DNA of 64,000 nt. Origin: Shigella phage Sf16. Positions 11,276 through 12,759 of the stretch are shown piece by piece. Below the pieces are notes generated by a model. The model made no database searches. It was not told the origin of the DNA and saw only the letters and a list, made by a program, of their open reading frames with translations. The stretch lies in sequence record MF158043; one strand, 5' to 3'. The translations under genes were made by a program, and so were the position numbers. How positions within the stretch are numbered: position 1 is the stretch's first letter; the number at the start of each line of letters is the position of its first letter.

Positions 11276-12394
11276 TCATGCAGTTACCTGAACTTTTGCT
11301 TGGTGAGAAGTTACAGAACCTACAGCGTTTGTTACAACGCAATCATAATTACCGTCATCAGCAGTTGTTACACTTGCTTTGGTATATGTTGCAGAAGTCG
11401 CACCTGAGATATTGCTGTTACCTTTTCTCCACTGGTAACCAGTTGCACCAGTTGCAGTGATACTGATTGTTAGTGTCTGACCAACTGTTAGGTCTTGGTC
11501 TTGTGGCTGAACCGTAATGACTGGAAGTGGGTTGATTGTCACAGTTGCTGCATTTGAAGTTACAGAACCTACAGCATTTGTTACGACACACGTATAGCTT
11601 CCTGCGTCAGTTGTCTTAGCATTTGCTTTTGAGTAAGTTGCAGATGTTGCACCTGAGATATTTGTACCATTCTTCTTCCACTGATAGCTTGTCGCTCCAG
11701 TTGCAACCACGCTTAGTGTTAGTGTGGAACTTTCATTAACAGCTTTGCTAGTTGGTTGTGTGGTGATTACTGGAAGCGGGTTGATTGTAATAACTGCTGC
11801 ATCAGATGTTGTAGAGCCTACATCATTTGTTACTACGCACGTATAGCTTCCTGCATCTGCTGGTACAGCGCCAGCCTTAGTATACGTAGCTGAGGTTGCA
11901 CCTGAGATATCTGAACTACCCTTCTTCCACTGGTAGCTTGTTGCATTTGTTGCCACAATGCTGAGATTAATTGCTGAACCTTCATTAACTGCGCCACCAG
12001 TTGGTTGTGTGGTGATTACAGGTGGTTGTGCAGAGTCTTTAAGTTTTGCATTCAGCATCGAGAAGGGTTTCACTCTTGCAAGCCATTCACAATAAACTGT
12101 ATCAACATCCTTCCCATTGATGATTGCATACTGCAAGTCCATGAAGAAGTCAGCAGTCCTCATCTGAGCACCAACTGAATATAAAAGTTCTTCACTAAAT
12201 GGAACTGTGTAGTCTGGTGTGTAATTGAAGTCAGTAACTTCTGGAATATCAGACTCAGGCCACGGTGAGCTATATGTCAGAGGCAGAACAGCCTCCTGAT
12301 ACTTTCTGAAGTCGTATCTTTTGCCAGCTTTAACATTCGCTACAAAATCCTTAACGAACTCTTTAAAATCTGGATATGTCTTTGCTTTAATCAT
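11276..12394 (-). CDS. Ig-like domain protein (N-terminal domain plus three tandem Ig-like repeats)
   Basis: Three ~88-aa repeats each with ATSYQWKK...SGATSATY...GSYTCVVTN. Confidence 0.7.
   Translation of the reverse strand: MIKAKTYPDFKEFVKDFVANVKAGKRYDFRKYQEAVLPLTYSSPWPESDIPEVTDFNYTPDYTVPFSEELLYSVGAQMRTADFFMDLQYAIINGKDVDTVYCEWLARVKPFSMLNAKLKDSAQPPVITTQPTGGAVNEGSAINLSIVATNATSYQWKKGSSDISGATSATYTKAGAVPADAGSYTCVVTNDVGSTTSDAAVITINPLPVITTQPTSKAVNESSTLTLSVVATGATSYQWKKNGTNISGATSATYSKANAKTTDAGSYTCVVTNAVGSVTSNAATVTINPLPVITVQPQDQDLTVGQTLTISITATGATGYQWRKGNSNISGATSATYTKASVTTADDGNYDCVVTNAVGSVTSHQAKVQVTA
11279..11990 (-). repeat. three tandem ~264-bp coding repeats (Ig-like domains)
   Basis: Protein-level repeats seen in the 11276-12394 translation; boundaries approximate. 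Confidence 0.5.
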
Positions 12395-12759
12395 TTCTTA
12401 GCCTCTAATCTTGCGTTTAGTCTAAAATAACCTTTGTGCTGCGGTGAAACATCACCTACAACAACTCCGTCAATCTTATAGCCTTTACCCATCACATATT
12501 GAATATCCATCAAGAATGTACCAAGACCAACAATATGAAACATCGGGTAAAGAAGTTCTTCAGTATCTGGTAGAGGAATTTTAGGTGTGTATTCGAAATA
12601 TGTTTCGGTAGGGTTGATATCCTTCTCAGGCCATTTGCTATCACGCCATGTTAAGGGTGTCGGAAGTACATCATCAAGATTATACCTGTCACCTTCTTGA
12701 ACACTTTGGACATAAGATTGTAGGAAGCAATAAAAGTCTTTTCCACTCTTTGCCTTCAT
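12391..12759 (-). CDS. paralog of the N-terminal domain of the Ig-like protein
   Basis: Shared motifs with 11276-12394 N-terminus (YxxTP, EELLY, FMDLQY, LNAKL/RLNARL). Confidence 0.55.
   Translation of the reverse strand: MKAKSGKDFYCFLQSYVQSVQEGDRYNLDDVLPTPLTWRDSKWPEKDINPTETYFEYTPKIPLPDTEELLYPMFHIVGLGTFLMDIQYVMGKGYKIDGVVVGDVSPQHKGYFRLNARLEAKK

Follow-up and report, generated by a model that had tools for sequence, protein, structure and literature searches.

A Hoc-like capsid decoration protein and its conserved, stand-alone anchor-domain paralog beside the endolysin gene of Shigella phage Sf16

Background

The closest described counterparts of the locus analysed here are the decoration proteins seen on the capsids of Shigella phage Sf14 and phage Bas63. 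In Sf14, gp20 is one of two capsid decoration proteins and was detected in the virion by mass spectrometry (PMC11821841). As a monomer, it occupies the middle of each of the 60 hexamers that adjoin a pentamer in the T=9 capsid, and its N-terminal 118 residues form the capsid-binding domain (PMC11821841). Within this domain, Arg79 and Arg107 are salt-bridged to the Asp221 residues of three subunits of the capsid protein; in the three-fold hexamers, Asp221 is shifted according to the same paper (PMC11821841). Three Ig-like domains were predicted for Sf14 gp20 but not resolved, and the protein was compared with T4 Hoc (PMC11821841). The Bas63 homolog, named Hex-Dec, behaves in the same way, with pseudo-two-fold lobes recognized in its anchor domain, and its authors saw no density on the remaining hexamers (PMC12609058). 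The same authors found one to four Ig domains on Hex-Dec of felixounaviruses and considered the label "tail protein" an annotation error (PMC12609058). The ortholog in phage Felix O1, gp36, had already given a strong match in the virion in 2010, with 14 peptides, and its odd position apart from the morphogenesis genes was remarked upon at that time (PMC3185647).

The architecture of these proteins resembles that of T4 Hoc, likewise a hexamer-centre monomer bearing a string of Ig domains, and gp20 is probably non-essential and probably adhesive as well. However, the capsid-binding domain is C-terminal in Hoc and N-terminal in gp20, and the gp20-type anchor was described as "larger and topologically distinct" from that of Hoc, with "minimal sequence conservation" (PMC12609058). 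Hence, the likeness between gp20 and Hoc is one of architecture and not of common ancestry of the anchor. A second comparison is offered by T5 pb10, the Ig domain of which matches gp20 (5lxk_A, 8zvi_a); unlike gp20, pb10 has a single Ig domain, and its capsid-binding domain has no detectable sequence similarity to gp20 residues 1–118, the matches covering residues 206–290 only. The third is the "BIG2 domain-containing protein" of Kolesnikvirus (Erwinia phage phiEa104/M7, approximately 205 aa). It has a homologous anchor (profile E 8e-10; TM 0.54) and occupies the same genomic spot, flanked by the gp22 homolog and the endolysin gene, but has a single Big_2 domain where gp20 has I-set repeats, in genomes without a stand-alone paralog. 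To our knowledge, T4 Hoc has no stand-alone anchor paralog either, and none was found in the literature searched.

Here we describe the corresponding locus of Shigella phage Sf16 with emphasis on gp21, a conserved stand-alone copy of the anchor that precedes the decoration gene and was omitted from both recent cryo-EM studies. We found no mention of gp21 in the Sf14 and Bas63 papers, their supplements or the wider literature searched. The gene, undescribed in the literature searched, adds a small twist to an established system and does not amount to a system of a new type.

Results

Locus, gene order and neighbourhood

Over positions 10500–13500, the window, i.e., the whole stretch of 64,000 nt of Shigella phage Sf16 DNA that was analysed (sequence record MF158043), matches Shigella phage Sf14 (Mooglevirus, Ounavirinae) with 100% identity; outside this interval, a few indels separate it from the reference record. 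We use the Sf14 gene names: gp19 for the endolysin, gp20 (FDI99_gp020) for the gene annotated as "tail protein" and gp21 (YP_009618566) for a hypothetical protein. The two ORFs of 372 and 122 aa named in a preliminary description of this DNA were both recovered on the minus strand, at the positions given there. The features of the locus, and the two capsid genes to which they relate, are the following:

10773–10796, minus strand: terminator-like hairpin after the endolysin gene, end of the gp21-gp20-gp19 block (counterpart: Felix O1 t35)
10803–11267, minus strand: gp19, endolysin (T4-type lysozyme; Pfam Phage_lysozyme E 2e-38, PHROG 7)
11276–12394, minus strand: gp20, Hoc-like head decoration protein ("Hex-Dec"), 372 aa (identical to 9C2D/9C3A chain S and to Sf14 FDI99_gp020)
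11279–11530, minus strand: gp20 Ig-like domain 3, residues 289–372 (third Pfam stretch; repeat family D1)
11531–11779, minus strand: gp20 Ig-like domain 2, residues 206–288 (best Pfam stretch 208–273/286; repeat family D2)
11780–12028, minus strand: gp20 Ig-like domain 1, residues 123–205 (Pfam Ig_3/I-set, 249-nt repeat)
12041–12394, minus strand: gp20 capsid-binding domain, residues 1–118, with the anchors Arg79 and Arg107 (limits from PMC11821841)
12391–12394, minus strand: ATGA overlap of the gp21 stop and gp20 start codons (read from the sequence)
12391–12759, minus strand: gp21, stand-alone, Ig-less paralog of the gp20 capsid-binding domain, 122 aa (BLASTP, PHROG 4463, AlphaFold2 model)
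12782–12795, minus strand: terminator-like hairpin between gp22 and gp21, GGGGCGAAAGCCCC followed by TTTTATTT (counterparts: Felix O1 t38 and an annotated terminator in wV8)
12803–13393, minus strand: gp22, upstream neighbour, PHROG 4034 (conserved; synteny kept in all relatives, Kolesnikvirus and the contig L017 among them)
26850–27227, plus strand: the other decoration protein, a beta-tulip trimer, Sf14 gp33, 125 aa (matches FDI99_gp124; role according to PMC11821841)
27259–28362, plus strand: major capsid protein, Sf14 gp34, with Asp as residue 221 (read from the ORF; role as gp20 ligand according to PMC11821841)

The endolysin gene starts 8 nt past the gp20 stop codon and has the same position in all relatives examined. 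Mooglevirus, Suspvirus and Felixounavirus share the order gp22, gp21, gp20, endolysin with a divergent uncultured contig of 87 kb (L017), while Kolesnikvirus genomes have the order gp22, gp20-type gene, endolysin, without gp21. Thus, the position of gp20 beside the endolysin gene is ancestral. In Sf14, the capsid gene lies approximately 15 kb from gp20 on the opposite strand, past a tRNA cluster, and the placement away from the structural module to which the preliminary description had drawn attention is conserved across the subfamily. The endolysin gene does not belong to a lysis cassette, since the holin and spanin genes are located elsewhere. The neighbourhood tells little about function.

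gp20 is the known Hoc-like head decoration protein of Sf14

Over its full length gp20 is 100% identical to chain S of PDB entries 9C2D and 9C3A (phmmer E 3e-241 to 9C2D_S), and it matches 9NCF_S of phage Bas63 with an E value of 1e-213. Its N-terminal domain is 84–95% identical to those of many relatives, including Bas63 9NCF chain S. Among gp20-type sequences, Arg79 is present in 44 of 44 and Arg107 in 43 of 44, and the capsid protein encoded in the window has Asp at position 221, the residue that takes part in the published salt bridges with Sf14 gp20.

The remaining part of the gene consists of three in-register repeats with a period of 249 nt (83 aa) and a nucleotide identity of 65–75%. 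At the protein level the repeats share 57–73% identity, Ig1 and Ig2 being the closest pair (73%) and Ig3 more distant from both (57–61%). The Pfam families Ig_3, Ig_2 and I-set each match gp20 three times, with whole-protein E values between 7e-31 and 1e-24, in agreement with the three tandem Ig-like repeats proposed beforehand. The motif SGATSATY, quoted there as conserved, occurs in all three repeats; YQWKK and GSYTCVVTN are confined to repeats 1 and 2 and are replaced by YQWRK and GNYDCVVTN in repeat 3. PHROG 4069 and 2973 ("Hoc-like head decoration") match gp20 with E values of 2e-44 and 7e-35 over residues 123–290 only; there was no Hoc-like PHROG match over residues 1–120. A stop codon within gp20 in the Z31 genome and gp20 frameshifts in the ST11 genome were noticed, for which sequencing error is a possible cause.

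We conclude that gp20 is a Hoc-like head decoration protein, the structure, location and likely role of which were published in 2025; nothing contradicts this assignment. Published cryo-EM and mass spectrometry of the identical Sf14 protein show that its N-terminal domain occupies, as a monomer, the depression in the middle of all 60 pentamer-adjacent hexamers, where Arg79 and Arg107 anchor it to capsid Asp221, and that three I-set Ig-like domains are displayed from it as a flexible string. To judge from T4 Hoc, this string probably provides weak adhesion, be it to surfaces, to glycans or to other particles. The preliminary description had read the Ig-bearing protein as a surface decoration and had proposed virion proteomics and structure prediction of the shared N-terminal domain as checks. 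This reading is correct, and both checks are already published for gp20; neither of the outcomes that it had named as refuting, absence from virions and lack of an Ig fold, applies: the identical protein was located on the Sf14 capsid (9C2D chain S) and found in Sf14 virions by mass spectrometry (PMC11821841), the 14 peptides of Felix O1 gp36 point the same way (PMC3185647), the Ig fold is supported by the Pfam matches, and the N-terminal domain in common with gp21 is the one that binds the capsid in 9C2D_S. The capsid-binding role of that domain was beyond the reach of the preliminary description.

gp21 is an old and conserved paralog of the capsid-binding domain

The duplication of the N-terminal domain as a separate gene of 122 aa, likewise noted beforehand, was borne out by all comparisons. 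gp21 aligns end to end with gp20 residues 1–119 (38% identity over 123 columns, BLASTP E 2e-19), both proteins cross-match PHROG 3995 and 4463, and gp21 matches 9C2D_S in phmmer (E 1.5e-13). It has no Pfam Ig match and ends at residue 122. An AlphaFold2 model calculated with divergent family members in the alignment reached a pLDDT of 83 and a pTM of 0.82, compared with a pLDDT of 67 for an earlier model from a shallow alignment. In a Foldseek search with this model, the only significant PDB matches were 9C2D_S (TM 0.70, E 3e-7) and 9NCF_S (TM 0.69), and only family members matched it in a viral structure library. Compared with Sf14 gp20 and Bas63 Hex-Dec, gp21 shares the anchor fold at 38% identity but lacks the Ig domains, has Gly in place of Arg79 and has been observed neither on a capsid nor in a virion proteome.

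By tblastn, a gp21 ortholog with 73–100% identity was detected in approximately 230 of 252 Ounavirinae records, nearly always accompanied by a second, weaker match corresponding to the gp20 N-terminus. These approximately 230 genomes with an intact gp21 ORF belong to three genera. An exhaustive profile search of 1.84 billion representative proteins recovered only 13 clusters of the anchor-domain family, comprising stand-alone forms, forms bearing I-set Ig domains, the Kolesnikvirus form with Big_2 and three more distant forms, one of which has a Lys/Ser/Glu-rich tail as its sole addition.

Two members of this family, P0098 and P0099, are adjacent on the uncultured contig L017 in the same order as gp21 and gp20. 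A scan of viral contigs for P0098 gave no match, and its context is taken from an exact-protein look-up. gp21 and P0098 are 48% identical to each other but each only 31–38% identical to its own neighbour, the Ig-bearing copies share 58% identity across the same split, and the stand-alone copies cluster together in a tree. From these sequence relationships, gp21 derives from one old tandem duplication of the capsid-binding domain. A stand-alone copy was not found in Kolesnikvirus genomes. In summary of the structural and phylogenetic comparisons, gp21 is a true paralog of the capsid-binding domain that has kept the fold and is old and conserved.

gp21 is under purifying selection and diverged at the capsid contacts

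Among seven genomes, gp21 had a median pairwise dN/dS of 0.14, compared with 0.04 for the gp20 anchor domain and approximately 0.09 for gp22 and the endolysin gene, and the synonymous divergence of gp21 was near saturation. gp21 is a real, maintained gene under purifying selection. Across 116 aligned columns of gp21 and gp20, 35 are fixed and shared and 47 (40%) are fixed to different residues in the two proteins. These 47 columns are concentrated in the gp20 segments 74–83 and 104–113, which hold Arg79 and Arg107, and it is in these segments that gp21 is most invariant. Glycine (Gly78) occupies the position of Arg79 in 46 of 47 gp21 orthologs, and Gln107 is present in 43 of 47. P0098 likewise has Gly at the Arg79 position, while Arg is kept at the Arg107 position; hence, the loss of Arg79 is the only one of the two that is universal among the stand-alone copies.

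Stop/start overlap, flanking hairpins and timing of gp21 and gp20

The gp21 stop and gp20 start codons overlap by 4 or 8 nt in seven of the seven genomes compared and by 1 nt in L017. The ATGA overlap suggests translational coupling of the two genes. Terminator-like hairpins flank the gp21-gp20-endolysin block and match t38 and t35 of Felix O1. In that phage, a transcript of the gp21 ortholog was detected, and ORFs 36 and 37, the orthology of which to gp20 and gp21 was confirmed, peak at 60 min together with the morphogenesis genes; the peak of the flanking ORFs 35 and 38 falls at 25 min. The timing comes from semi-quantitative RT-PCR.

Two further elements were considered and rejected. The approximately 20 nt between the upstream hairpin and gp21 hold only a ribosome-binding site, and a promoter consensus scan of this segment performed no better than on shuffled sequence. 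A programmed frameshift yielding a gp21-gp20 fusion was discarded as well: the junction (GCTAAGAAATGA) has no canonical slippery heptamer, and the overlap varies between 1, 4 and 8 nt.

gp21 in virion proteomes and in natural variants

The gp21 ortholog is missing from the virion proteome of Felix O1, although proteins of 9.7–13.7 kDa were detected there (PMC3185647), and from that of VpaE1 according to the main-text wording of the VpaE1 paper. Both negatives come from phages other than Sf14, for which the mass-spectrometry table contains only proteins given a structural role. Four field isolates, Z31, fBSPA4, REP7 and P54, carry the same gp21 pseudogene, with a lost start codon, frameshifts and a deletion of approximately 180 nt. 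Three of these four have an intact gp20 with both arginines, the truncated gp20 of Z31 being the exception. ST11 presents the opposite case of an intact gp21 and a frameshifted gp20. Testing for co-loss, we found that genomes without gp21 do not also lose gp20. From these data, gp21 is apparently no abundant, stable component of the virion; it is dispensable in nature, both for viability and for the retention of gp20. Any role of gp21 in the mounting of gp20 is not obligatory, because the pseudogene clade keeps gp20 intact.

Discussion

For gp20, nothing new is at stake beyond its annotation. For gp21, we infer tentatively that it may be an accessory factor of capsid decoration which is either absent from the virion or bound only transiently, a reading that we regard as possible rather than probable. 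The protein would engage hexamer centres through the same fold as gp20 but at another stage or site, such as the procapsid or the 20 three-fold hexamers, and by doing so could influence where or when gp20 is mounted. The capsid-touching segments of gp20 were rebuilt in gp21, with the exchange of Arg79 for Gly, and then frozen, so that the anchoring surface differs on a retained fold. Taken as a whole, the published role of gp20 together with an accessory role of gp21 is a likely explanation of the locus. A more specific version states that gp21 is an Ig-less anchor paralog retuned by the loss of Arg79 to another state of the hexamer, either the 20 three-fold hexamers or the pre-expansion procapsid, and that it patterns the mounting of gp20; in this detailed form we consider it rather unlikely.

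Should gp21 bind hexamers of another class or in another state, nature would have provided an experiment on the way in which a monomeric protein distinguishes between quasi-equivalent hexamers, a question left open by both structural papers. Binding to the capsid would also make gp21 a minimal capsid-binding tag of 14 kDa for phage display. If it does not bind capsids, gp21 is one more phage gene without a known function.

Another view, also rather unlikely in our estimate, is that gp21 was neofunctionalised for a task unrelated to decoration, host-directed or anti-defence, and kept the fold merely as a scaffold. The 40% of aligned columns fixed to residues other than those of gp20 are compatible with such a change, as are the absence from virions and the faster evolution of gp21, evident from both the identities across the same split (48% versus 58% for the Ig-bearing copies) and the dN/dS values (0.14 versus 0.04). 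However, the orthologs adjoin the gp20 gene in all genomes examined, with the overlap kept and the late expression peak in Felix O1 in common. Moreover, no PADLOC defence model matched gp20, gp21 or gp22, and no other fold matched gp21.

Alternatively, gp21 could be a second hexamer-centre decoration protein, an Ig-less cap for the 20 hexamers that lie on the three-fold axes and are left empty by gp20. Such a cap could have escaped notice, since icosahedral averaging smears out a monomer that lies on a three-fold axis, and a paralog without Arg79 could fit these hexamers because Asp221 is shifted there. The shared capsid-binding fold, the late expression of the Felix O1 ortholog together with that of gp20, and the remodelled yet extremely conserved contact segments would all be in line with a cap. 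Against it stand the failure to detect the ortholog in the virion proteomes of Felix O1 and VpaE1, with smaller proteins found in Felix O1, the lack of density on other hexamers in the Bas63 paper (PMC12609058) and the dispensability of gp21 in a natural clade, so that we consider a three-fold cap improbable.

The adjacency of the genes, their conserved stop/start overlap and the late peak of both Felix O1 orthologs could also be explained if gp21 was a dedicated chaperone or partner of the gp20 anchor, which it might contact, for example, via the pseudo-two-fold lobes of the capsid-binding domain. It would keep gp20 soluble or block early binding and be freed on mounting, consistent with its absence from virions. 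Nevertheless, an obligate chaperone is weakened by the loss of gp21 without loss of gp20: in the pseudogene clade gp20 is intact, including Arg79 and Arg107, Kolesnikvirus has a gp20-type protein without gp21, and ST11 keeps gp21 next to a frameshifted gp20. A chaperone function, too, is therefore improbable.

Compared with these readings and with the accessory role that we tentatively favour, it is hardly credible that gp21 is a decaying, non-functional remnant of the duplication. The pseudogene in one clade would fit decay, but a dN/dS of 0.14 at synonymous divergence near saturation, the intact ORF in approximately 230 genomes of three genera and on a contig at 48% identity, and the transcript in Felix O1 all argue for a maintained gene.

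Finally, the view of most database records, and of PHROG 3995, that gp20 and gp21 are tail proteins is practically untenable, since cryo-EM of Sf14 and Bas63 places the gp20-type protein on capsid hexamers (9C2D, 9NCF) and the Bas63 authors themselves attribute the label to an error. The practical point regarding gp20 is that this widespread "tail protein" annotation is wrong.

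Terminator-like hairpins and expression timing

The block formed by gp21, gp20 and the endolysin gene is flanked on both sides by terminator-like hairpins, and the start of gp21 lies only ~20 nt past the end of the upstream hairpin.

Terminator-like hairpins in the window
12782-12795, minus strand: upstream of gp21
10773-10796, minus strand: beyond the endolysin gene

In Felix O1, the middle two genes, which are the gp21 and gp20 orthologs, showed a late expression peak, and the genes flanking them an earlier one.

The lysis genes are dispersed, with the holin, a second lysozyme-like protein and the spanins each encoded tens of kilobases from the endolysin gene (window 10803-11267).

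Lysis genes in the Sf14 record
42388-42762, 77939-78487 and 79634-80141: holin, second lysozyme-like protein and spanins

Fusion partners and natural disruptions

Across lineages the capsid-binding domain acts like a portable unit with varying fusion partners: I-set repeats, a Big_2 domain in Kolesnikvirus or a Lys/Ser/Glu-rich tail in protein P0104 (fusions at 4001-4615 of L005, DNA of a relative, and in family members P0100-P0104).

The gp20 ortholog is disrupted by frameshifts in Salmonella phage ST11 (2860-3760 of L003, DNA of this phage) and by an in-frame stop within the Ig domain in Z31 (2498-3070 of L002, DNA of Z31); these breaks are either errors in the sequencing or cases in which the decoration protein was lost in nature. 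One gp21 pseudogene with an identical deletion is common to Z31, fBSPA4, REP7 and P54, a Felix O1-like clade that probably extends to about 20 records, with phages originating from China, India and the USA. As natural knockouts, these phages could be of experimental use.

Copies of the gp21 pseudogene
2306-2497 of L002: Z31
about 1306-1497 in each: L014, L015 (DNA of relatives) and P54

Phage P54 (PV390658) bears the label Tequatrovirus, and the 'Staphylococcus phage SA1' record contains a gp21 ortholog that shares 99% identity with the VpaE1 one. The two records appear to be Felix O1-like and either mislabelled or contaminated.

Comparison with the Sf14 reference

Colinearity between the window and the Sf14 reference is broken, with indels of ~77 and ~386 nt in the tRNA region. 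The initial 3.2 kb of the window matches the right end of the Sf14 record, where it can be placed at numerous different offsets; this indicates that the region holds a set of short repeats or of small paralogous ORFs. The gene for a 471-aa protein annotated as a DUF2828 'RNA-binding protein' is the immediate upstream neighbour of a tRNA cluster, which has 24 genes by Rfam.

Features of the window
1-3200: non-colinear with Sf14
about 17376-18266: non-colinear with Sf14
14461-15876: 471-aa DUF2828 protein
16042-21113: tRNA cluster
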